Shown: positions 9,462 to 45,367, counted from the stretch's first letter. The stretch is 64,000 bases of DNA from Candidatus Altiarchaeota archaeon (GCA_043800705.1 JAZDMS010000010.1:32001-96000); one strand, 5' to 3'. Notes: generated by a model from the sequence alone, not told the origin. Program-made: numbers and translations.

Positions 9462-11230
9462 CAGCATCCGCCCGTGGCTGCAACTCCTCCGGTTGAGCCG
9501 CTGAGTGTCTTCTCGCAGCCTGCCCATCCCTGGTTGTACAGGCAGAGGTTGGTCTTGATCGCGTCCGCTGCGATGCCCTGGAACTTGTATTTGTTGTTCG
9601 CAAGCCATGTCGGGCTGCCGGTCACGGAAAGCTGCTCTGTTAAGGCGAAGCTCTCCTTGAGGAGGTTCTTGCCTTCTTCGCCTTCGGCGCATGTCTTGAG
9701 CTTGGCTGCGTCCATTCCGTTGTCTGTCGCGCACTTTTGCCAGTCGCCCTTCATGTCGGCGTTTCTGCACCATATGTAGTCCATATAATCGAAGTTGTTG
9801 GGGTAGTTCTTGATGGCGCATATCTCCCTAAGATCCTCGTCGACTTCCGGCTGTCCGTGGAGGCTGGTAAACGTGCCTTTCGCCTCGTTGTATGTGCCTA
9901 TGAAGTGGATGTCGAATTTCAGGTCATTGAAGGTGGCTATGACCTCCTTCATCGAGTTCAGGGCCTGCAACCCGTACGGGCACTGGCTCATCACGAACAC
10001 GTCGAGTTTCTTCGGTATCTCCTGCCTGCAGCTCATCCTGCCCTTGCACAGGTCCTCGCTGCAGTGTTCGTTCGTGGCGTCGCAGTACGGGTCCCATGTG
10101 GCGCCGATCTTCAGGCTCATGTAGTTCCCCGCCTCAAAGAGGTAGTTCTTTACGTCTGCGTAGCCCGGGTCCTGCGTGACCTTCTTCTCGAAAAGGAACG
10201 CTGGCAGGAGTTTGACCTGTGTGGCGTCATAGAGCGACTTGCCCTCCGGGCTGGAATAGTCCAGGTTCTTTATCTGGACCCCCGGGAACATCGTCTTGAG
10301 CCTGCCTTCGAACATCGTCGTGTCACAGCTCTTGCAGAGCTTGTCGCTCAATACGGTGACCTGGAAATCCAGGGGCTTGGGAATTTTATCGCATGCTTCG
10401 GGCTTGACTGCGAGGACCCCGCATATTGCCCTTATGAAATCCGCCTCCTTTCTGCCGCCGTTATATGCGTTCCCGTTGAGGAACATCGTCGGGCTGCCTC
10501 TTGCGCCCGCACTCGTGGCAGCCTCCAGGGAGGCCTTGAGGAGCTGCTTGCCTTCGTCGCCCGTGGAGCAGGCCGTCATCTTAGCGACGTCCATGCCGCT
10601 GCCTGTTGCGCATGATTCCCATGCGGTGCTTCTGATGTTCTTATCCCTGCATACTACGTAGTCCATCCATTTGTAATCCTGCGGGTAGTATTTCATCGCG
10701 CACAGCTCGCGGATGTTCTCGTCGACTTCCGTCTGGCCGTGTAGGCTCTCGAACTTGCCGTCGCCTGCGTCGTCGGCTATGTAGTTTACTGTGAGGTCTA
10801 TTGAGCCGCCCATCTTCTTCAGCACGGGGGCTATCGCATCCAAGACCTGCACCCCGTATGGGCACTGGCTCATTATGTAGAAATCCAGTTTTGCCTTGTC
10901 GCCGGTCGCGCGCGCCGGTTGGGTCGTGCCCGGTATGCTCGTTGTCGTCGATACCGTTGCATCGTCGCCAAGGTTTGTTAGAAGCAAGTATCCGATGGCG
11001 AGCACTGCGATGACGAGTAAGGCTGCTAACGCCTTTTCAAGGGGGAATGCGTATCCGGCGCCAGCGTCCTTTGCGGCCTTAGCGTGCGTGGGTGCCGCTT
11101 CGACCTTGTGTTTGGCTGGGGTTTTCCTTGGTGCGCGCCTTTTTTTGGCTTCCGCCTTGCGCGTCGTCTTCGCTTTTATCTCGACTACTGGGCTGGGTGT
11201 TCCAATATCTGTATTCTCTTCATCCGCCAT
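9461..11230 (-). CDS. Membrane-anchored, Cys-rich, duplicated thioredoxin-fold (DsbA/GILT-like) protein
   Basis: One N-terminal TM; two repeats each with MSQCPYG, SLHGQxEVDE and GSPT; central CKSC domain. Confidence 0.75.
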   Translation of the reverse strand: MADEENTDIGTPSPVVEIKAKTTRKAEAKKRRAPRKTPAKHKVEAAPTHAKAAKDAGAGYAFPLEKALAALLVIAVLAIGYLLLTNLGDDATVSTTTSIPGTTQPARATGDKAKLDFYIMSQCPYGVQVLDAIAPVLKKMGGSIDLTVNYIADDAGDGKFESLHGQTEVDENIRELCAMKYYPQDYKWMDYVVCRDKNIRSTAWESCATGSGMDVAKMTACSTGDEGKQLLKASLEAATSAGARGSPTMFLNGNAYNGGRKEADFIRAICGVLAVKPEACDKIPKPLDFQVTVLSDKLCKSCDTTMFEGRLKTMFPGVQIKNLDYSSPEGKSLYDATQVKLLPAFLFEKKVTQDPGYADVKNYLFEAGNYMSLKIGATWDPYCDATNEHCSEDLCKGRMSCRQEIPKKLDVFVMSQCPYGLQALNSMKEVIATFNDLKFDIHFIGTYNEAKGTFTSLHGQPEVDEDLREICAIKNYPNNFDYMDYIWCRNADMKGDWQKCATDNGMDAAKLKTCAEGEEGKNLLKESFALTEQLSVTGSPTWLANNKYKFQGIAADAIKTNLCLYNQGWAGCEKTLSGSTGGVAATGGC

Positions 11231-11412
11231 TTTTCAAACCTCGCAAAAATGCAATAATAAAAATCGTGTCATATACTACGAAAATGCGGTATAAAAAGAG
11301 CGCGACATGCGATCCAGGGCTTTAAGGGATGTCCAAGTCAGCAACCGAACCTTTATCCCATTATATTTATTCCCAGTGTATCTATTAATCAAAAACTTCA
11401 AAGGATAAGATA

Positions 11413-13323
11413 ATGATCGGTCCCTTCTATGCGGATTCGCTGGTTTTTCTGGTATTTTTCCCGGTTATAGCGGGTTCGATATTGATGTTTCTACCCACTG
11501 AGAGGGTTCGTAAGTCGTTTGGCTACATCTCCTCGTTGGGCATTCTGCTCATGTCGTTCTATGTGATCTACTCGTCATTCGACGCCCCAGCGACGCACTA
11601 TCTGATAGCCGATAGCCCCCTGAATGAGGCGATGCTAGCGATCGAGGCATTGATCGCACTATATATCATATTCCGGAGCGCCAGATGCGGGAAGGCGCTC
11701 CCCATAGTGTTGGTGCTTTTGCAGTCCGCATGCGTGATATGGTCAGAACTCGGGTACCCCGCCGCCCAAGCCTCAGGGAACAGTCTCTTCCTGGACAGCC
11801 TGTCCGTCATCATGGTTTCAATAATCGGGATCATAGGAAGCCTGATATGCGTCTATTCGTTCGGCTACATGGGCAATTACCACGCCCGAAACCGTGAGCT
11901 GAAGGATCGCAGAGGCGTATTCTACTACGTTATGTTTGCGTTCCTTTCGGCGATGTTTGGGCTGGTCCTTTCCGACAGCCTCAAATGGGTCTACTTCTTC
12001 TGGGAGGTTACGACCCTATGCTCCTTCATACTAATCGGATACACCAGAACCAATGATTCCATAAAAAACTCGTTCAATGCACTGACAATGAACCTGCTGG
12101 GGGGCATAGCATTCGCATTCGCGATCCTATACCTGAGTTCACTGGCGGAGCCGAACCTCACGATCGACGGCATCCTCCGGGCGAACAAGGCAATAGTCCT
12201 CGTTCCAGTAGTCCTCGTGGGTTTCGCAGCCCTCACGAAATCCGCCCAGCTGCCATTCTCATCCTGGCTTGTCGGGGCCATGGTCGCACCCACTCCCGTA
12301 TCCGCCCTCCTGCACTCCAGTACGATGGTCAAGGCGGGCGTCTACCTCCTCGTCAGGTTCGCACCCGTGTTCGAAGGAACGGTATCGGGGACCATGCTCT
12401 CCCTGCTGGGGGGCGTCACGTTCCTCGTAACCTCCATGATCTCGGTATCCCAGAAAAATGCGAAAAAGGTCCTGGCATACTCCACCATCGCAAACCTCGG
12501 ACTCATCGTCGCCTGCGCTGGGGTCGGCACATATGAGGCCGTATGGGCCGCCGTCCTTCTGATAATATTCCATGCACTGGCGAAGTCCCTCATGTTCCTG
12601 GCGGTCGGGACCGTGGAGCAGAAGATAAGCAGCAAGGACATAGAGGACATGGAGGGCCTCATCATCCGGATGCCGAAGATATCCGTGATGATGATAATCG
12701 GGATCGCCGGGATGTTCCTCGCGCCTTTCGGGATGCTGATCAGCAAATGGGCGACGCTGAAGGCATTCATCGACTCGAACCCGGTCCTGGTCGGCATCGT
12801 CGCGTTCGGCAGCGGCGTCACGGTCTTCTTCTGGTCAAAGTGGCTCGGCAAGATAATCGTCGTCAACAGGGCATACAAGCAGGTCGAAGGCAGTATCAGC
12901 GCCGAGGAATGGACTGCCCTCTACAGTCTCATGATGCTGACCATCGGCATATGCGTCCTCTTCCCGCTGGTGTCTCAGCATTTCGTCGAACCTTATGTCT
13001 ATCAGGTCTACGGCAGGACCACGCACCTCAGCCAGGACAACCTAATGATCATGCTTTTCATGCTCGCTGTGATACTCCTGACTCCATTCTGCCTCCTGTA
13101 CTACAAAGGCGAAAGGAGGCATATCTCCCCGTACATGGGCGGCAGGACCGTGGCGGATTCGAAATTCCTCGGCACCTTCGGCATCCGGCGGGAGATGTCC
13201 CTGAAGAACTACTACCTGGAGTCGGTCTTTGGCGAGGCGAAACTCATGAAACTCGCCCTTCCACTGTGCATCATGCTCATCGCGGCAATGCTTATCTTCA
13301 GCATGACGGGAGTGGCGCTATGA
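11413..13323 (+). CDS. echA: Ech hydrogenase subunit A (NuoL-like antiporter subunit)
   Basis: FFWE, TKSAQLPF, AMVAPTPVSALLHSSTMVKAGVY, LAYSTIANLG. Confidence 0.9.
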   Translation: MIGPFYADSLVFLVFFPVIAGSILMFLPTERVRKSFGYISSLGILLMSFYVIYSSFDAPATHYLIADSPLNEAMLAIEALIALYIIFRSARCGKALPIVLVLLQSACVIWSELGYPAAQASGNSLFLDSLSVIMVSIIGIIGSLICVYSFGYMGNYHARNRELKDRRGVFYYVMFAFLSAMFGLVLSDSLKWVYFFWEVTTLCSFILIGYTRTNDSIKNSFNALTMNLLGGIAFAFAILYLSSLAEPNLTIDGILRANKAIVLVPVVLVGFAALTKSAQLPFSSWLVGAMVAPTPVSALLHSSTMVKAGVYLLVRFAPVFEGTVSGTMLSLLGGVTFLVTSMISVSQKNAKKVLAYSTIANLGLIVACAGVGTYEAVWAAVLLIIFHALAKSLMFLAVGTVEQKISSKDIEDMEGLIIRMPKISVMMIIGIAGMFLAPFGMLISKWATLKAFIDSNPVLVGIVAFGSGVTVFFWSKWLGKIIVVNRAYKQVEGSISAEEWTALYSLMMLTIGICVLFPLVSQHFVEPYVYQVYGRTTHLSQDNLMIMLFMLAVILLTPFCLLYYKGERRHISPYMGGRTVADSKFLGTFGIRREMSLKNYYLESVFGEAKLMKLALPLCIMLIAAMLIFSMTGVAL

Positions 13324-37439: not shown

Positions 37440-38441
37440 ATGTCCTTCCTGAAACTCCTCGCAAGGGTGCTGCCGCAGGGCATGCGGGAAAAATACTCCA
37501 AAATGGTCGGGTATTCGACGCTGAAAACCAACCCCGACACGTTCATAGGATTCGCCATAACCGCCGGAATCGTCGCGGGATTCCTCCTGACCATCGCCAC
37601 AAACGGGCTAAAACCCCCATGGCCCCTCTCCATGCCCCTCGTCATGTTCACCGTCTCATTTACGGCCATGCAGCTTCTCATCTACATCTGGCTCACCCTC
37701 AACGTCAGCGCGAAAGGGCGCCAGGTCGAGACCGCCCTCCCCGACGCGCTGCAGCTCATGTCCTCAAACATACGCGCAGGCCTCACCACCGACAAGGCCC
37801 TCCTCATGTCCGCCCGCCCGGAATTCGGCGCATTGGAGGAGGAGATCAGGCGCGTGGGCAAGGAGACGATGGCGGGCAGAAACCTCACAGACGCCCTCTC
37901 CAGAATGACGCTGCACATAAAATCCACGGACCTGTCACGCACAGTAGAGCTCATAACCAACAGCATAAAATCCGGCGGCCAGCTCGCGGACCTGCTCGAC
38001 CAGACAGCGGACGACCTCAGGGACCAGCAGATCATCCAAAAGGAGATAAGCGCGAGCGTCCTCATGTATGTCCTGTTCATATTCATAGCCATAGCCATCG
38101 GAGCCCCCATGCTCTTCGCCATGTCCTCATTCCTCGTCGACCTACTGGCCAGGAACATGGCGATGATCTCCAGAGAAATGCCGAAAAACTTCGACGGCGC
38201 AGCCAAGATGCCGATAAAGATGACCGGCCTCAGCATCAGCACCGAATTCATAAAACAATACGCAGTAATATCCATCTCAATCTCCTGCATTATGGGCGCC
38301 ATGATCATGGGCCTCATACTCAAAGGCGAAGAAAAAGAAGGATTCAAATACGTCATCATAATGCTCCCCCTCGCCCTGATAATCTTCTTCGCCGCATCAT
38401 GGGGCCTCGAAATGACCATAGGCGGAATGATGCCGCGCTGA
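37440..38441 (+). CDS. Type II secretion F / TadC-like pilus platform protein
   Basis: LPDALQLMSSNIRAG, EFGAL, KSGGQLADLL. Confidence 0.9.
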   Translation: MSFLKLLARVLPQGMREKYSKMVGYSTLKTNPDTFIGFAITAGIVAGFLLTIATNGLKPPWPLSMPLVMFTVSFTAMQLLIYIWLTLNVSAKGRQVETALPDALQLMSSNIRAGLTTDKALLMSARPEFGALEEEIRRVGKETMAGRNLTDALSRMTLHIKSTDLSRTVELITNSIKSGGQLADLLDQTADDLRDQQIIQKEISASVLMYVLFIFIAIAIGAPMLFAMSSFLVDLLARNMAMISREMPKNFDGAAKMPIKMTGLSISTEFIKQYAVISISISCIMGAMIMGLILKGEEKEGFKYVIIMLPLALIIFFAASWGLEMTIGGMMPR

Positions 38442-38525
38442 CGCGCAGAGGGCTACCCCCTCATTTTTTTGGATTGTAGGCCCCCCTTTTTTTAGCGAGT
38501 TTCGTCGTAAGGCAGCTCCAACCTT

Positions 38526-38650
38526 TCGGATAACATTGGGATTAAGCGAAGTCTGCGGAAGGACTGTCTATTCCTGACGTTTGCGCAGATTTGGGGCGCA
38601 GAGCACCCGACAAGGGTCCGAATGCGCCCGCTTAATCCCGCGTTATCCGA
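38526..38650. repeat. attC-like site A
   Basis: TCGGATAAC-ATTGGGATTAAGCG ... CGCTTAATCCCGC-GTTATCCGA with two internal hairpins. Confidence 0.85.
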
Positions 38651-38697
38651 CCGAGCCCGACAAGGGCGAGGCTTGAGTTTTCGAACTGCCCCTATAC

Positions 38698-39075
38698 TTA
38701 GATAGTTATCTTTTTTTCGATTTTAATATTTTCTCCAGCGTGAGTCTTGATGATGGTATTGAATTCATCTAAATCTTTTGTTATAAGATTTGTCCGCATA
38801 TATGCAACTTGACTGCTTTCTCTTGTTAACTTCAAATCATATGGTCTCATTCCCCCATTAGATAAAAAGACACTACGAAGGATTTCTATTTTATCAAAAT
38901 CTTTCCACGCATAGAATTTATCTGGTTTGATACAATGAATTCCAGTAGAATAAACTTTAAAATATGGTTCAAACGGTTCAAAAATAAAGTTTGTTTGTAA
39001 TAACACTCTAAGTATGTTGTGCTTCTTAGGTTTATCTTCATAGACTAAACTGCCACGTTCTTTTACATCTATCAT
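38698..39075 (-). CDS. Cassette gene: hypothetical 125-aa protein
   Basis: AT-rich ORF filling the A-B cassette. Confidence 0.7.
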   Translation of the reverse strand: MIDVKERGSLVYEDKPKKHNILRVLLQTNFIFEPFEPYFKVYSTGIHCIKPDKFYAWKDFDKIEILRSVFLSNGGMRPYDLKLTRESSQVAYMRTNLITKDLDEFNTIIKTHAGENIKIEKKITI

Positions 39076-39126
39076 GTAGGTTATTGCAATTTCATTAAAA
39101 AGAGTTGTCTGGCAGCTCGAAAATTG

Positions 39127-40331
39127 ATACTATGTAGGGTTCTTGCCTTTTGCCGTGTAATGCGGCTAAAGGAGGAGTATTAAGGAGTATTATGGAGAAC
39201 CCTACGGTTTATCTTGGATGTGATGCGCATAAAAAAGAGTGCGTTTTCTGCGGTTTGAATGAGGAAGGCAACCGTGTTTGGGAGGGTAAAACGCCCACAT
39301 GTTTGGCGGGATTCGAGTTTGTCAAAGGCAAACTCGAAGGCTATATTGTCAAAGTCGTGGTTGAGGCGGGAGGTTTCGTGTGGAAGATTACGGACTTATT
39401 CTCGGAGGTCGGTTTCCAGGTGTACGTGTGCAACCCCTCAAAGAATCCCCAGATCGGTTTGAGCAGGAAGAAAACCGATAAAGAAGATGCATTTAAGTTA
39501 GCTGATCTGCTTCGGGCGGGGTATTTGAAATGCATCTATATCCCCACGAAAGAGCAGAGGGAGTTGCGGTCTGTAAGCAGGGACAGGCATAGTCTTGGTC
39601 GATTGCGGGGTAGGCTGTTGACTCAGGCACGCACTGCATCGTATGAGCATCAGATAGAACGTCGCAAAAGGATCATTGAATGCGTAGATGATGAAATCAA
39701 GAGTCTGAAAAAAGAAATAACAGCGAATGCCGGGAAAAATCCGAGCATTCGGCTTTTAGACTCAACTCCTGGAATAGCGGAGTACGGGGCTAACCTAATC
39801 GTTGGGGAAATATGCACTATAGACCGGTTCCCCACCTGCAAACAGTACATCGCCTACTGTGGGCTGGTGCCGTCGGTACGTCAGTCGGGGAATACCTTGC
39901 ATCTGGGTGCGATAAGGAAGGATTCCAATCACCGGTTGAAGTGGGTGTATACCCAGTCTGCTTGGATAGCGGTAAGGTGGAATCAGGAACTCAGAAGATT
40001 ATACGATCGGAAAGCTCGGGAGAGGGGGAAGAAGAAGGCGATTATTGTTGTGGCGAAGAAACTCGCCACAAGGAACTATTGGATGCTCAAAGAAAACAAA
40101 ACATACCAGGAACTGGTAGCCGCTTTTATCCGAATAGGCTAATCAAGCCTTACAGATTGTTTGCGGATCAGATCCCTGGACGGATCAGTACAGTAGGCTA
40201 ACCAAGCCTGAATGGTTGAATGTCGGAAGACGACTCACAAAGTACTGACCACGAAAAAAGAAACAAGTAAAATTCTGGAAGGTCTTATTATAGCGGCAGC
40301 CCTATACACATACCAGGCAAGAACCCACATG
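39127..40331 (+). mobile_element. IS110/IS1111-family insertion sequence 1, abutting attC-like site B
   Basis: Subterminal IR GGGTTCTTGCCT (39137-48) and AGGCAAGAACCC (40315-26); about 170 bp 3' non-coding end; ends uncertain by a few bp (core TG or AT). Confidence 0.85.
39192..40142 (+). CDS. IS110-family transposase (bridge recombinase)
   Basis: DEDD RuvC-like residues LGCDAHK, VVEAG, KTDKEDA; YCGLVP..RQSG catalytic serine region. Confidence 0.93.
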   Translation: MENPTVYLGCDAHKKECVFCGLNEEGNRVWEGKTPTCLAGFEFVKGKLEGYIVKVVVEAGGFVWKITDLFSEVGFQVYVCNPSKNPQIGLSRKKTDKEDAFKLADLLRAGYLKCIYIPTKEQRELRSVSRDRHSLGRLRGRLLTQARTASYEHQIERRKRIIECVDDEIKSLKKEITANAGKNPSIRLLDSTPGIAEYGANLIVGEICTIDRFPTCKQYIAYCGLVPSVRQSGNTLHLGAIRKDSNHRLKWVYTQSAWIAVRWNQELRRLYDRKARERGKKKAIIVVAKKLATRNYWMLKENKTYQELVAAFIRIG

Positions 40332-40334
40332 GTT

Positions 40335-40456
40335 TCGGATAACATGGCAGGTAACCGAAGTTCGCCGAAGAAACGTCGCCAGACTGACAATTGGGCGAAT
40401 TTGGGGAACCACGGACCCGCAGGCAGAGAATTCCCGCTTAGCCGTACGTTATACGA
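40335..40456. repeat. attC-like site B
   Basis: TCGGATAAC..GGTAACCGAAGT ... ATTTGGGG ... CGCTTAGCCGTAC-GTTATACGA. Confidence 0.82.
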
Positions 40457-40517
40457 GGCGAACCGCAGTGAGCCCGAGCCCCTGAAAGGGGCGAGCGTGC
40501 CTGCCAAGTTTTTTTTG

Positions 40518-40988
40518 TTATTGTTTTAGTTTGATATACCCTTCAATTAGTCTTAGGACTTTTACTTCTCCTTCCCTGTTTAGTGGTTTTTGGACGTATT
40601 CATTTGCGCCAATTCTAGGTCTCTCTTCATCTGACGGTAGTCTACCTGACAACATTATTACTACCTGGTCACCGTTGGATGTTTTCTTTATATCTGGAAT
40701 AACAGTATCCCCAGACATTCCTGGCATTTCTCTATCACACACTACAACATCATACTTCTTTGGGGAGTACTTTTCAAGACCATCCATACCGTTAGCGGCT
40801 AAATCAACATCCCAACCTTGTCGCACCATAATCATTTGGAGTCGATCACGCAATATCTCATCATCATCTATTAAAAGAATCTTTGGTTTACTCACTCTGG
40901 CACTTAAATGTGGTTGGAGTTGACGCACCTCTCCTAAGCTTATCTTATCTGCTAAAGGATTTCTGGTTGAAATATGCTGCGTGACCAT
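40518..40988 (-). CDS. Cassette gene: stand-alone response regulator receiver (CheY-like)
   Basis: ILLIDDD, AANG, VVCDREMPGMSG, MLSG, QKP. Confidence 0.88.
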   Translation of the reverse strand: MVTQHISTRNPLADKISLGEVRQLQPHLSARVSKPKILLIDDDEILRDRLQMIMVRQGWDVDLAANGMDGLEKYSPKKYDVVVCDREMPGMSGDTVIPDIKKTSNGDQVVIMLSGRLPSDEERPRIGANEYVQKPLNREGEVKVLRLIEGYIKLKQ

Positions 40989-41214
40989 GTTATTAGATAT
41001 AATAATGAAAACTATTTAACTTGGCAGGCATGTCGTATAACATCGCGGGTAAGCGAAGTTCCCGCGATGGACTGCCTCTGACCCACTTTTGGCGGGAATT
41101 TGGGGCGCCGCGTACCCGGCAAGGGATCACGAACGCCCGCTTAGCCGCATTCCTTAGAACTTTTTCTTTTGGCTGTGTGTTTACATTTTATTAGTCCTCT
41201 ATCTTATTAATCTT

Positions 41215-41364
41215 TTGAGGGCATGGGGCTGTTCCACAATCGTTCCTCGGCGCTCACTGGGCGCAATTTGGTAAGTGGTAAACGGAGCCCCCAATCACGT
41301 TACAGAAGCTTCAGCCTCGGGTGAGGTTGGCTTAGCGGCTAAACGGGGGTGCCCGTGCCCTCAA
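41215..41364 (-). ncRNA. Predicted bridge/seek RNA of IS element 2
   Basis: Closing stem TTGAGGGCA/TGCCCTCAA; two internal loops whose strands match the target (CGTTTAGCCGC, TAACGTG) and the donor junction (TACCA, AGGAACG). Confidence 0.78.
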
Positions 41365-41386
41365 CTGAAGTAAAGAACTTAATCTT

Positions 41387-42376
41387 TTATGCCACCTCCC
41401 TGTATGGTTCCTGGTTGGTGAGCATGTGCCAGATGATGGTCGCCATTTTCCGGGCGGTGCTTCTTCTGGCGGTTTGCATGCCTTTTCTTTTTTGGATTTT
41501 GTAGTAGTGTTTCATGAATCTTGTGTCGATTGTTGCAGCTTTCCCGGAGGATTCGTAGAGTATCCATTTGAGCCATTTGTTGACTGCGTGTTTTTCTACG
41601 GTGTGTTCTTTGCTGCCGGATTGGTAGATTCCGGGGCATAGTCCGCAGTAGCTGATGAGGTGTTGGGGTGTTTTGAATCGTTTTATGTCTCCGATTTCCG
41701 CCAGGATGAACAGGGCTGAGTATTCAGCTACTCCGGGCAGGCTCATCAGCAAACTTGTTTGATGGTTGCTGCGGCTTATTTTTTCTATCCGGTTTTTGGC
41801 TTCTTGTTCTTCGGCGTGTACGGTGTCGTAGACGTTCAGGAGGTTGGTGGTGTTCTGGTCCTGGTTTTGTTTTTTGAAGGCTGTTAGCATCTTTTTTGTC
41901 CAGAGGTTTTTGGGGCAGGTTTGACCTTCCCGAATGAGATTCGTCTTTATTTTGGTTTTTACCTGTGTTTGTATCCTGGTTATGCTGCTTTTGTGTCTGC
42001 ATAGGTCTCGTAGTTTCTGTGTTTCTTCGCCGGGTATGTAGACTTCGGGCAGGTAGTTGGTTCGCAGCAGGTCTGCGAGTATTTTGGCGTCGCCCCAGTC
42101 TGTTTTTTTGTTTGCGGCAAGTTGGTGTGTTTTTAGGGGATTAGCTAGTTTGACTGTGTATCCGAGTGTTGTTAGGTTTCTGTATGCTGGTCGCCACATT
42201 CCGCAGGCTTCTACGGCTACTGTCAGATGGGTGTTAGGTATCCCTGTCACGAACCGTTCAACAGCGTCTTTTCTGGCGGGGAATTCATTCTCCCGAACGA
42301 CTTTTCCCCTGGCATCCATGATGCACCCGGTGTACTTTTCCTTGTGTATGTCCAACCCGCAAAACAACTGATCCAT
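41387..42376 (-). CDS. IS110-family transposase (bridge recombinase)
   Basis: CGLDIHK, AVEACG, KTDWGDA, YCGLCP..YQSG; SD GGAGGTGA before ATG 42376. Confidence 0.93.
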   Translation of the reverse strand: MDQLFCGLDIHKEKYTGCIMDARGKVVRENEFPARKDAVERFVTGIPNTHLTVAVEACGMWRPAYRNLTTLGYTVKLANPLKTHQLAANKKTDWGDAKILADLLRTNYLPEVYIPGEETQKLRDLCRHKSSITRIQTQVKTKIKTNLIREGQTCPKNLWTKKMLTAFKKQNQDQNTTNLLNVYDTVHAEEQEAKNRIEKISRSNHQTSLLMSLPGVAEYSALFILAEIGDIKRFKTPQHLISYCGLCPGIYQSGSKEHTVEKHAVNKWLKWILYESSGKAATIDTRFMKHYYKIQKRKGMQTARRSTARKMATIIWHMLTNQEPYREVA

Positions 42377-42506
42377 ATTTTTCACCTCCCCGGGGCTTAT
42401 AGACGGTAATAAGCCCCATAATAAACTATTTGCCTAAAGAAAAAGTTCTACTACCATCACGTTATGCGCCCCTGGGCGACAAGCCCAGGGTTCGAAGCCC
42501 AAAATA

Positions 42507-43121
42507 TTATTCTGTAAAAGAATGATTCAAGATATAGTCAGCTGGCAATACTTTCGACTCATCTTCATTATACCAGAAGCACTGTTTTTGTTTGCTATAG
42601 AAAGAGCTATTCATGTTGCAGCATATATTACAGCAAACATAGGAGTGATCAGGGATTTTAGTGACATAAAACTTTTTGAAGGTGTCATATCCGTCTTTTT
42701 CAAATTCACCAAAGAAACCCGTTACGTTAAACGGTTTAGCTCCGAAATACACTAATTTGCTGGTTTCCCTAGTCAGGCAGTTATCTGTTTTCATGTCCCA
42801 GAGGATGACGTCGTTATCCGCAAATGTGCAACTTTTGAATTTCGACTTTCTTGCTACTGCTGTTATATTCTCAATTCCAGCAGAAATTGTTTCAGTCCTA
42901 TTCGATATCCTTATAGGATACTCTTCAGAGGGTTCACAATTGAAGATATACCATCCATGGTAGTCGATAACTTTAGGGATCAAAGATAAATTCACTTGAA
43001 TAGTACTTGTAGAAATTGAGGATAATCTATGTGTCGTTGAAGTAATTCCTTGATTTGTGTCCGAACCAATACACCCACAAAAGAGTAATACCAGGGTTAA
43101 TGAAGGCAATATTTGATTCAC
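42507..43121 (-). CDS. Cassette gene: predicted lipoprotein/secreted Cys-containing protein
   Basis: Hydrophobic N-terminus ending LLFCGC, followed by a Ser/Thr-rich linker. Confidence 0.7.
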   Translation of the reverse strand: MNQILPSLTLVLLFCGCIGSDTNQGITSTTHRLSSISTSTIQVNLSLIPKVIDYHGWYIFNCEPSEEYPIRISNRTETISAGIENITAVARKSKFKSCTFADNDVILWDMKTDNCLTRETSKLVYFGAKPFNVTGFFGEFEKDGYDTFKKFYVTKIPDHSYVCCNICCNMNSSFYSKQKQCFWYNEDESKVLPADYILNHSFTE

Positions 43122-43201
43122 ATTTATCTATACATCCTCTAGCAATAAAATCGTTTGGGTCGTTTGGGCTTCGAAAGTCAGTTCGCCGCAGCGAGCCGAT
43201 T

Positions 43202-43328
43202 GCGCATAACATTGGGGCTAAACGAAGTCCGCCGAGGAAACGCCGCCAGAGTGACTTTTGGGCGGATTTGGGCAACCACGTACCCCGACAAGGGGCAGAG
43301 AATTGCCGTTTAGCCCTGCGTTATCCGA
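43202..43328. repeat. attC-like site D
   Basis: GCGCATAAC-ATTGGGGCTAAACGAAGT ... CGTTTAGCCCTGC-GTTATCCGA. Confidence 0.85.
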
Positions 43329-43401
43329 CCGAGCCCGGCAAGGGCGAGGCAAGCCCCTCCAAAAGGAGGGGCGTAGAGTCGCGGAGGGGCAATAGTTCTT
43401 A

Positions 43402-44289
43402 TTATTCCCTTAGCCGTAATCTTTTTTGATTTGTCTCGATTAATCTCAATCTTCTTTTTATTCGAGTCTGAGGTATTTGATTTCTTAGGAATATCATACC
43501 CTCATCAGTCAGTCTCCCAGCTTCTCTCTCACTAGGTTCTTGTAGATATCCCCGTCGTAAATATTCCTCTTCTGTCTCAATAATTTCTTTTTTAGTTTTT
43601 AGGGGTGGTTTTTGGACTGATAATACTATCACTCCATCAATACCGTATCCATCCATAAAATCAATGAGAGCAAGCTCATACGTACTATATAAACGTAATC
43701 CCCGAAAGGTCGATGCTGTATCTGTTAATGACTCCATATAAGGATTTTCTCTCCATCTTTGACAAAAGTAATTTTTACTTAATTTAAATAATCTCCAATA
43801 ATCTTTAATTCTTTTTTCATCTCTATCCAAAATTCTACTTTTTAGATGTTCATTTATAACAACACTATAATAGATCGGACTGATTACGGCAAGGGCAGAA
43901 TGAATTAATTCGTGTTCTAAGCTGTTTGTTTCATGTACTAGCTTTTCTGGCCCTTTGGAGTAAGGATAATCCGCCACACTGATAAGGTTATGGGTGAGAG
44001 AATAGCGTCCACCAACACTTTTCTTGTGTTTTATTGAAATCTGTAATGGTAATAACTCTTCAATAGGCACTTCCCAGATTTGTGATATTCGTTGAAATAA
44101 ACTTCTAACTATTGGAGTCATGTTTTCCAATCTAAACTTTCCACCCTCCTCCGGAACAATCAATAAACCATATGTCCTATCAGTCAATGAACGAGTATCA
44201 TACCCTTCCCAAATCTTTGGAAAAGAATCATTAAATCTTTGGTGAAATTCTTCAACCCGTTGGTCCTTATTTTTTTTCTTAATGTGCAT
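43402..44289 (-). CDS. Cassette gene: hypothetical protein with HExxH (HELIH) zincin-like motif
   Basis: GGRYS..NLISV..LEHELIH; ATG 44289 lies about 30 nt after a TATATA box. Confidence 0.7.
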   Translation of the reverse strand: MHIKKKNKDQRVEEFHQRFNDSFPKIWEGYDTRSLTDRTYGLLIVPEEGGKFRLENMTPIVRSLFQRISQIWEVPIEELLPLQISIKHKKSVGGRYSLTHNLISVADYPYSKGPEKLVHETNSLEHELIHSALAVISPIYYSVVINEHLKSRILDRDEKRIKDYWRLFKLSKNYFCQRWRENPYMESLTDTASTFRGLRLYSTYELALIDFMDGYGIDGVIVLSVQKPPLKTKKEIIETEEEYLRRGYLQEPSEREAGRLTDEGMIFLRNQIPQTRIKRRLRLIETNQKRLRLRE

Positions 44290-44340
44290 ACACACCAATA
44301 AGATATCTGAACAATGACTATATATTGCCCCTCCGTGATT

Positions 44341-44412
44341 TCGGATAACACCGATTACCCGCAATTGTTGCGGGTAATCGCTCTTTTGGGCTGGTTACCC
44401 GCAGTTATGGGC
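44341..44412. other. Atypical terminal recombination site E (short attC-like or attI-like)
   Basis: TCGGATAAC, perfect hairpin CGATTACCCGCAA-TTG-TTGCGGGTAATCG, third TTACCCGCA copy, GTTATGGGC. Confidence 0.55.
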
Positions 44413-44494
44413 ATTATTTTTCCGATGCTCTGTGGGCCGTGGTTTTGGTCTTTATCGTTGGGGTTTTATATTCGCCGGCCGCCTTTTTCTTTGT

Positions 44495-44677
44495 ATGGAA
44501 TGCAGGAGGGCCTTGAATTTGAAGGCCTGCAATTGCACGTATCCGTGTGAGCGGAGGGGTTTGTGTTGCGAGTGCGTGGCATATCATCGGAAGCGGAATG
44601 AGCTGCCGGCCTGCTATTTTGATAAAGATGCTGAGAAGTCGTATGATCGGAGCATTGAGCGATTTATGCAAGGCTAA
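44495..44677 (+). CDS. Small Cys-rich protein (DUF6485-like)
   Basis: [31 protein letters not shown]. Confidence 0.75.
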
Positions 44678-44710: not shown

Positions 44711-45367
44711 TCAGTCTTCGTCTGTGCAGCAGCATTTTCTGCTGTGTTCGCTGCAGGGGCCTTTGGTGAGCGGCATCTGTATGTCTGGGGAGGTGCAGTT
44801 GTAGTTGGTGCAGTAGAATATGCCGTATCCTTCGTCGTCGCAGGCAAAGTCGCATTCGTTCAGGTATTTGGTTATGCAGCGGCCGTATTCGCACCTTTCA
44901 TAGATGTCGCAGGCTAATACGGCTGTGTTCTTCGGCTTGCCGAGGCAGTAGCTGTCCGGGTGGCCGCGGTTCACGCACGTATACGTCGTCGAGTAGTTCC
45001 ATATCGTGTTCCCCTTGCATTTGAGTTCCGATACGACTAATCCGCCGCAGTCCGCTTCGGAATTGCAGCGTTTGCCTTTGAGGGTCGTGGTCGTAGTGGA
45101 TGACGTGGTCTCTGATGACGATGTAGTGGTCGTGGATTCTGTCGATGTCGTCGTCGAGGTGGTAGTGGTGGACGACGTGGTGGTCGTGATGGTGGATGAT
45201 GTGGTCGTGGTCGTCGACGAAGTCGGCAGGACAATGTACCATACGCTGTTGAGGACGGCTTCGGCTGAATTCACGAATAGGGCCGAGGGGATTAAAAGCA
45301 GCAGAACGAGCATTATGCCCATTATTGCGACGAGGGCCGTCATGACGGCCTCTTCCTTGGCGACCAT
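44711..45367 (-). CDS. Membrane-anchored Thr-rich, Cys-rich surface protein
   Basis: N-terminal TM, poly-Thr/Ser stalk, Cys-rich C-terminus. Confidence 0.7.
   Translation of the reverse strand: MVAKEEAVMTALVAIMGIMLVLLLLIPSALFVNSAEAVLNSVWYIVLPTSSTTTTTSSTITTTTSSTTTTSTTTSTESTTTTSSSETTSSTTTTTLKGKRCNSEADCGGLVVSELKCKGNTIWNYSTTYTCVNRGHPDSYCLGKPKNTAVLACDIYERCEYGRCITKYLNECDFACDDEGYGIFYCTNYNCTSPDIQMPLTKGPCSEHSRKCCCTDED

Follow-up and report, generated by a model that had tools for sequence, protein, structure and literature searches.

Integrons of Archaea were reported only in 2022, almost all of them without an integrase, which raises the question of who moves their cassettes. A candidate answer is offered by positions 38526-44412 of the window, a 64,000-nt stretch of a Candidatus Altiarchaeota genome. 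These positions form an integron-type cassette array on the Altiarchaeota chromosome, for which the probable recombinase is a short enzyme of the XerA family. As in bacterial integrons, cassettes would leave and enter the array through a crossover at G|TT of the R' box, on a single strand that is folded. The recombinase would not be a canonical IntI but the XerA-family tyrosine recombinase encoded on another contig of the assembly (C17), and would act in trans on the array of the window. The preliminary description had already read the locus as integron-like; the folding of the sites, their confinement to arrays, their occurrence in 15 of 150 relatives, a cassette shared between arrays, and the archaeal nature of the host support this reading.

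Cassettes, cores and folded attC sites

Coordinates are positions in the 64,000-nt stretch, and the cassette sense is the minus strand, on which all four attC sites of ~125 nt are read. The last site of the array, attC A (38526-38650), scores 133.7 bits with a covariance model (CM), and its DNA fold has a z of -6.5. attC B (40335-40456) scores 116.5 bits and attC D (43202-43328) 127 bits. attC C is found in two pieces: its main part, from L'' to R' in cassette sense, spans 41033-41149 and is ~95% like site 2 of contig C37, and its R'' end, displaced by an insertion sequence (IS), lies at 42460-42469. The four imperfect palindromes stand where the preliminary description had placed them, and the motifs it listed (ATAAC, TAA.CGAAGT, ATTTGGG, CGYTTA, CGTTAT) are found in 4/4. 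Its layout holds for the sites, and missed two IS insertions and the displacement of the right core of site C, 1.3 kb off its body.

As had been proposed, the cores pair across each cassette, 9/9 and at all eight positions given: GTTATCCGA at 38642 with TCGGATAAC at 40335 (cassette 1), GTTATACGA at 40448 with TCGTATAAC at 41033 (cassette 2), GTTATGCGC at 42461 with GCGCATAAC at 43202 (cassette 3), and GTTATCCGA at 43320 with TCGGATAAC at 44341 (cassette 4). A reading of all cores also confirms that they mismatch within sites, at 3/4 variable bases in B and 2/4 in both C and D; the cores of A match. Because the variable tetramers of all cores are NCGN, only two positions per core truly vary, and the across-cassette signal amounts to 8 informative positions, not 36. 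The core type of the window, GGATAAC/GTTATCC, keeps AAC and GTT and deviates at the inner positions from RYYYAAC/GTTRRRY; canonical GCCTAAC/GTTAGGC cores are present in related sites.

Each cassette is built as TTAT-NNNN-AAT, an outer-stem arm, the open reading frame (ORF), a second arm, a GC-rich stretch of ~30-50 nt and its own attC of ~125 nt. The four cassettes look promoterless, and the head of the array is an attI-type site at 44341-44412. Their ORFs are co-oriented (4/4 on the minus strand), and the cassette region has a GC content of 0.41-0.48 as against 0.54-0.62 in the flanks, so the common orientation and AT-richness described earlier both stand. The ORFs of cassette 1 (38698-39075, 125 aa), cassette 3 (42507-43121, 204 aa) and cassette 4 (43402-44292, 296 aa from the ATG at 44292) have no family match; that of cassette 2 (40518-40988, 156 aa) encodes a stand-alone response-regulator receiver domain (PF00072, 66 bits). 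An alternative TTG start of the cassette 4 ORF, at 44364, would overlap attI. Cassette contents are integron-typical: toxin-antitoxin, restriction-modification, the receiver domain, and unknowns. In the relative G051 (locus L020, contig C168, 1366-5306), a 4-kb cassette between near-identical attCs holds two DNA methyltransferases and a 464-aa ORF, and is likely a restriction-modification system. The four attCs lie within 4.8 kb on contig C35, which has 0 PF00589 matches; under the definition of two or more attCs spaced by under 4 kb with no integrase beside them, the array is a cluster of attC sites lacking an integrase (CALIN).

Each site has an R'' box and folds into an R stem of 9 bp plus an L stem, with two inner hairpins forming a three-way junction. 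Among the six sites of this genome, 13/35 pairs change on both sides, as compared to 7.1 in shuffles (0/500 as high); slid controls yield 0-3 pairs, and 93% of the cells pair. Among 24 sites of other genomes, in an alignment fitted to the CM, which favours the structure, 33/35 pairs covary, with 153 cells against 46 in shuffles (0/500) and 20-37 in slid controls. A failure to fold into R/L-box stems, named in the preliminary description as a sign against integron sites, was looked for: the sites do fold, with compensatory changes. Conserved extrahelical bases on the recombined strand were not found, as the L stems have no conserved bulged bases. In A, D and C37 site 1 these stems pair throughout; those of C and C37 site 2 harbor a 1x1 C-C mismatch, that of B has a 3-nt bulge, and those of the relative G015 display symmetric 2x2 mismatches. 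The sole constant asymmetry of attC is one extra base in the 3' spacer. Stems that are often fully paired, with none of the extrahelical bases read by the IntI-specific domain, would fit a recombinase without that domain.

A second structural feature is a cassette-specific inverted repeat of 12-16 nt that brackets every ORF. One arm stands directly after the R' 9-mer (AAT...) and the other 13-50 nt ahead of R''. The arms match at 15/16, 13/14 and 14/15 positions in cassettes 4, 3 and 2, and at 12/13 in cassette 1 after removal of the IS it contains. Over 19 cassettes from three sources, own pairs have a mean of 12.2 matches against 7.75 in 342 non-own pairs, a mean reached in 0/10,000 permutations, and where the outer arms of two cassettes are homologous, their differences compensate each other. 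The outer stem would lengthen the attC stem outward if the cassette were circular or folded. The outer-stem arm and R'' are separated by a GC-rich stretch that is conserved (ACTTCCTCGC...GCTCGG, read in cassette sense) and is present only on the ORF side of every site; it occupies the ~13-50 nt to the plus-strand right of each attC (for example 38651-38672 and 43329-43400) and is also seen in L003, L019 and L091. To note, ORF-less cassettes exist in L022 (G011:C8, 6506-6631) and in L074 (~2830-2960): two attCs, or attI and attC, are merely ~100-130 nt apart, and the paired outer arms are still present.

The sites are few and confined to arrays. In the 2.0-Mb assembly, nhmmer and the CM each detect six, four in the window and two on C37. 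All six sit in arrays, and no dispersed copies unlinked to gene units were found in this whole-genome search with a custom CM, as the preliminary description had proposed to run. CM hits occur in 15/150 relatives with a patchy pattern; contig C63 of G015 carries seven co-oriented sites with ORFs upstream of each and an identical across-cassette pairing pattern.

The limits of the mobile unit are given by a ParE toxin-antitoxin cassette of C37 (1886-2604), which matches metagenome contig L091 with 87% identity over 722 nt. The homology starts at the GTTAT of the upstream site and stops at that of the attC belonging to the cassette, and the outside flanks are unrelated on both sides. L091 stems from a related archaeon: its flanks match contig C3 of this assembly with 66-75% amino-acid identity, not C17. 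The shared cassette fixes the polarity (ORF, then its own attC) and indicates that the unit is mobile; by these homology limits, the mobile unit is the ORF with its downstream attC, bounded at GTTAT cores. Polarity had also been sought in the homology between site C and C37 site 2, which gave a contradictory answer, probably from IS-mediated exchange; it was settled instead by the position of the recombinase and the shared ParE cassette.

The attI-type head and the candidate recombinase

The orphan attI-type site (44341-44412, minus strand) is formed by an R' box (44341-44349), a 27-nt perfect palindrome (44353-44379) made of two inverted arms, and a direct third copy of the arm (44393-44404). 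By these parts and its alignments, this short site is of attI type and no fifth attC. It is followed on the plus strand by a remnant of an integrase leader (44413-44497), the first ~50 nt of which are homologous to the stretch from attI to the start codon in L091 and C17. In the window, this leader runs into the DUF6485 gene, with no recombinase gene behind attI. The window attI sequence recurs on L091, with a tyrosine recombinase gene on one side and the first cassette on the other, a second orphan copy heads a cassette on contig C21, and a variant with covarying arms stands just upstream of the only tyrosine recombinase of the assembly, at the very start of C17. All four copies (window, C21, L091 and C17) align through the site and ~50 nt of leader. 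The same design (NNNNATAAC, palindrome, direct arm copy) is found upstream of recombinase genes in C17, G008, G023, G024, G026, G028, G044, G045 and L091, with arms covarying between genomes. The exact palindrome pattern occurs only in this genome among 401 genomes, with 0 matches in the metagenome contigs. With its inverted arms around a short spacer, adjoining the crossover, attI may be read as an Xer core.

The absence of a tyrosine recombinase from the 64 kb, reported at the outset, is confirmed by 0 PF00589 matches in the window. The accompanying statement that the enzyme acts in trans or has been lost can now be sharpened, as the window keeps an attI without a gene and the only recombinase lies on C17 behind its own attI. 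This 259-aa protein, at the contig edge, is the single PF00589 match of the assembly. Its best match in the PDB is P. abyssi XerA (4A8E, 131 bits), in one stretch. Conversely, VchIntIA (2A3V) matches it over two separate stretches, and where IntI4 has 77 aa the query has 32. Against TIGR02249, the candidate integrase scores 168 bits for a cut-off of 265 and leaves model positions 171-240 unmatched, so that the IntI-specific domain was not found. The search for IntI that had been proposed thus returns a tyrosine recombinase on C17, but no canonical IntI, the insertion being absent.

Metagenome contigs were scanned with a gapped attC pattern blind to proteins, which gave 75 loci with 91 CM sites. 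Homologues of the C17 protein were detected by tblastn in 10/75 of these loci, representing 8 distinct sequences, and every tyrosine recombinase beside the arrays is of the short type. In all of the recombinase-bearing loci (10/10), the gene lies upstream of the array in divergent orientation, and in L091, L101 and L103 the box adjoining it pairs 9/9 with the R'' of the first attC. The array-linked proteins are 259-283 aa long, with intact catalytic motifs. The spacing from KGxKDR to HxLRH is 60-65 aa in 8/8 of them, as compared to 66 in XerA and 107 in IntI4 when these two are counted from alignments. The top family is NF040815 (XerA_Arch) for C17 and 6/7 metagenome proteins scanned; TIGR02249 is higher for L115, and none of these eight proteins reaches the TIGR02249 cut-off. 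With respect to the NF040815 cut-off of 220 bits, C17 (172.5) and L091 (164.2) are below, L074, L050, L086, L101 and L049 range from 223 to 243.5, and L115, with its N-terminus cut, has 211.6. On L101, a short recombinase, attI and attC have as their neighbour a methionyl-tRNA formyltransferase gene (fmt, 10479-11435; 304 bits for a cut-off of 201.5), which suggests a bacterial host for this type of platform.

The recombinase is accessory in this lineage, not a housekeeping enzyme. Its gene is present in 23/60 class relatives and in 0/4 same-genus genomes, with no PF00589 match in G001 (92% complete) or G003 (88% complete). The 5' end of the gene lies 143-872 nt from a contig end in this genome and in 7/8 relatives with at least 54% identity, as expected if repeats lie upstream. 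As to a canonical IntI, no protein exceeds the TIGR02249 cut-off in any of the 16 array-bearing genomes (0/16), and none was found at E 1e-45 in 151 genomes, in a search for which TIGR02249 had no positive control among 14 control genomes. A CM search upstream of the recombinase genes of relatives gave 1 match in 28 loci; this model, built from the sites of this genome, misses short or divergent sites such as that of G039.

Chromosomal setting and insertion sequences

The assembly is a metagenome-assembled genome (MAG) of 2.0 Mb in 43 contigs, 87.5% complete. The archaeal host assumed by the preliminary description is borne out by a thermosome (822 bits), a full archaeal small-subunit (SSU) rRNA (1422 bits) and conserved chromosomal flanks. 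On the left, the array is flanked by a host gene encoding a T2SSF-domain membrane protein of pilus or archaellum type (37440-38441, plus strand, PF00482), the nearest relatives of which are Candidatus Altiarchaeales or Altiarchaeota records. On the right stands the DUF6485 gene (44498-44677, plus strand, PF20095), its start revised to the ATG at 44498 by comparison with relatives. In the relatives L025-L027, no more than ~20 nt separate the T2SSF gene from the DUF6485 gene behind it, and in L028 and L029 a single 690-nt gene lies between the two. By this comparison, 38442-44497 is an insertion of 6 kb that separates the two genes of a conserved archaeal pair. Contamination is no issue, because the block is inserted between conserved archaeal chromosomal genes. 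Further right, a 218-aa ORF on the minus strand (44711-45367) has an N-terminus that is hydrophobic; degenerate repeats of 9 and 18 nt (45083-45225) encode a long tract in it that is rich in Thr and Ser. Its homologues occupy the same place in L025 and L026.

Two ISs, labelled IS1 and IS2 here, have landed later, at fixed positions in or beside attC sites; the two ~330-aa ORFs of the interval, one per strand, are their transposases. IS1 (41150-42459, minus strand, 1310 nt; transposase 41387-42385) splits attC C one base after R''. It possesses 19-nt subterminal inverted repeats (41155-41173 and 42432-42450) and a 237-nt non-coding region downstream of the transposase. IS2 (~39126-40334, plus strand, left end uncertain by a few nt; transposase 39150-40142) has subterminal inverted repeats at ~39132-39147 and 40316-40330 and likewise a downstream non-coding region. 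It sits exactly at the junction of the attC B R' 9-mer with the conserved AAT of the cassette, a boundary backed by the restored outer repeat. Both match PF01548 and PF02371, and both exhibit the features of the IS1111 family as given in PMC11187229: a DEDD transposase, subterminal inverted repeats, a downstream non-coding region and a fixed target. They are unrelated members of this family, with 30% identity and two different target positions. IS1-like elements share one attC position and one orientation in six places: site C, the start of C21, the terminal site of C37 (as a remnant), L072 (twice) and L047. A search of the genome contigs with the IS1 transposase returned no relative.

Further fragments were observed on the same contigs. 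A third fragment of an array occupies positions 1-830 of C21 (L017): the first letters of the contig belong to an IS1-like copy splitting an attC, followed by one cassette, with an ORF (250-719) antisense to the array, and by the orphan attI beside a NifU-like gene. From ~2330 onward, C21 carries a ribonucleotide reductase gene with an apparent intein (a Cys-led block after the conserved NPC motif). At 1-1050 of C37 (L003), two overlapping minus-strand frames resemble a frameshifted transposase and cut off an attC, which is the likely cause of the assembly break at the start of this contig. The non-coding region of IS1 (41150-41386) contains GTTTAGCCGC and then GCTAAGCC, which match the two strands of the L'' box in the attC next to the insertion point, as seekRNA guides do. 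The longest exact match of this seekRNA-like pairing between IS1 and its target is 8 nt, which was reached in 32/200 shuffles and is not significant. A solo fragment of the IS1 3' end on contig C4 (62456-62596) has different letters at the guide-like positions and a different flank.

Alternative readings and known systems

Several observations weigh against assigning the array to the C17 enzyme. This recombinase is not physically linked to the window array, and the window attI has other arms (TTACCCGC) than the attI of C17 (TTAAACGC). The copies of the shared ParE cassette differ at 2/4 variable bases after GTTAT. For 5/8 distinct linked loci, no pairing of the attI box with the first attC detected by the CM was established, and sites in between may have escaped the model. 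In the region upstream of the recombinase, G039 exhibits one short attC-like site only and G026 no obvious array. At the level of whole genomes, recombinase and CM hits are uncorrelated, 6/13 CM-positive class relatives having the gene when ~5 are expected by chance. The family is the broad archaeal XerA family, with 57% identity to a Methermicoccus protein, so that adjacency could reflect arrays piling up at an Xer/dif-like site and not a dedicated integrase. Finally, the IntI search had no positive control, so that divergent archaeal IntIs might score low, and a canonical IntI could sit in the missing 12% of the MAG. An alternative is an ordinary CALIN, built by a canonical IntI with the IntI-specific domain that is now lost or unassembled, with Xer-like genes adjoining arrays only because cassettes pile up at or beside an Xer/dif-like site. 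The breadth of the XerA family and the completeness of the MAG leave room for it; the archaeal integrons on record are mostly CALINs, and 8/9 of the archaeal attCs tested were recombined by IntI1 (PMC9668308). It is nonetheless judged unlikely, given the lack of any protein at the TIGR02249 cut-off in the 16 array-bearing genomes or at E 1e-45 in the 151, and the exclusively short recombinases beside arrays in the 75 metagenome loci. Moreover, the box beside the gene appears to be the place of cassette insertion, with its full pairing to the first attC in three loci.

Mobile repeats or RNA structures might also produce palindromes of this kind. Miniature transposable elements with inverted repeats (MITEs), repetitive extragenic palindromes (REPs) or RNA-level structures of 3' untranslated regions (3'-UTRs), unrelated to cassette exchange, would account for structured repeats after ORFs and for G-T wobbles that favour the ORF-sense strand here (20 G-T versus 4 A-C). 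This wobble bias is gone in relatives, with 24 G-T versus 26 A-C, and the choice of a strand from wobbles was dropped for that reason. A MITE- or REP-like repeat is practically excluded because the sites are few (6 copies), array-confined and patchy, and stand in co-oriented arrays in relatives. Furthermore, the cores pair across cassettes and not within sites, a whole cassette bounded at cores is common to two arrays, and arrays begin at a site beside a recombinase gene; any explanation of this sort is very improbable. It is even harder to credit the DEDD (IS110/IS1111) recombinases inside the array with moving the cassettes. Such enzymes are RNA-guided and site-specific (PMC11187229), and the only two IS110-family genes of the assembly are those of this array, but both belong to complete ISs with subterminal repeats that interrupt sites. 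In addition, no PF01548 match at E 1e-8 was found in the array-rich G011, G015, G018, G020 and G051, the family being present in 8/61 genomes. IS110-family genes thus do not track arrays in relatives, which makes them parasites of the sites and not their recombinase.

A wider proposal, about which we are slightly more doubtful than confident, goes further: a distinct class of integron platform, with a short XerA-family integrase and attCs that combine a lack of extrahelical bases with a cassette-specific outer stem, would be widespread in Altiarchaeota. Such platforms probably exist also in other small-genome archaea and some bacteria, and classical integrons could have arisen from an Xer/dif-like state of this kind. 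Tools requiring the IntI domain would then file them as integrase-less CALINs. The locus and its relatives provide a testable candidate, an Xer-length recombinase with its own attI, and matched substrates: the attI, long attCs with outer stems, and the shared toxin-antitoxin cassette. Should the enzyme work, the IntI-specific domain would not be essential for cassette recombination, the search space for integrons would be wider in both domains, and integron, Xer/dif and IMEX (integrative mobile elements exploiting Xer) systems would be mechanistically linked. Independently, the site-specific IS1111-type insertions extend attC targeting by RNA-guided DEDD transposases to Archaea.

Among known systems, the chromosomal integrons of Vibrio with VCR-type (Vibrio cholerae repeat) sites have, as here, attCs of ~120-130 nt with ATAAC/GTTAT-like cores and a branched variable region; their attCs are homogeneous within a genome, and toxin-antitoxin cassettes occur in reverse orientation, again as here. 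In contrast to them, the present system displays several arrays at different chromosomal loci, no conserved extrahelical bases, an extra conserved stretch of ~30-50 nt ahead of R'', a 12-16-bp outer stem over the ORF, and a candidate integrase of Xer length. IMEX such as the CTX phage rely on host XerCD for their integration at dif, by way of a folded single-stranded site. They share with the present system an Xer-family enzyme, a double-stranded core-like site with inverted arms, a folded hairpin partner and stacked integrations. The differences lie in the single-gene cassettes with integron-type R/L boxes found here, and in a recombinase gene that stands beside the site and is accessory in the lineage.

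The IS1111-attC group (ISKpn4, ISPst6), as described by Siddiquee et al. (2024, PMC11187229), resembles the two ISs in its DEDD transposase, subterminal repeats, downstream non-coding region and fixed-orientation insertion at one attC end; here, however, the host is an archaeon, and two unrelated members occupy positions just after R'' and just after the R' 9-mer.

Archaeal integrons and CALINs have already been published by Ghaly et al. (2022, Sci Adv, PMC9668308). Their arrays and the present one have in common tandem, short, mostly co-oriented ORFs with folding attCs in between, a patchy distribution and, mostly, no adjacent integrase. As an archaeal cassette array without a neighbouring integrase, the window is therefore a member of the kind published there. 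Conversely, the IntIs of that study carry the IntI-specific additional domain, which the array-linked recombinase described here does not have, and the outer stems bracketing ORFs and the orphan attI heads present here are undescribed in its main text (PMC9668308). Supplementary genome list aside, Altiarchaeota appear in that text only as a tree root. A literature search for an Xer-type integron integrase, or for integrons in Altiarchaeota, returned nothing beyond this paper, the supplements of which may list the lineage. Relative to its main text, the orphan attI, the Xer-length integrase candidate, the bulge-free attCs with outer stems, and the attC-targeting ISs in Archaea appear to be new.

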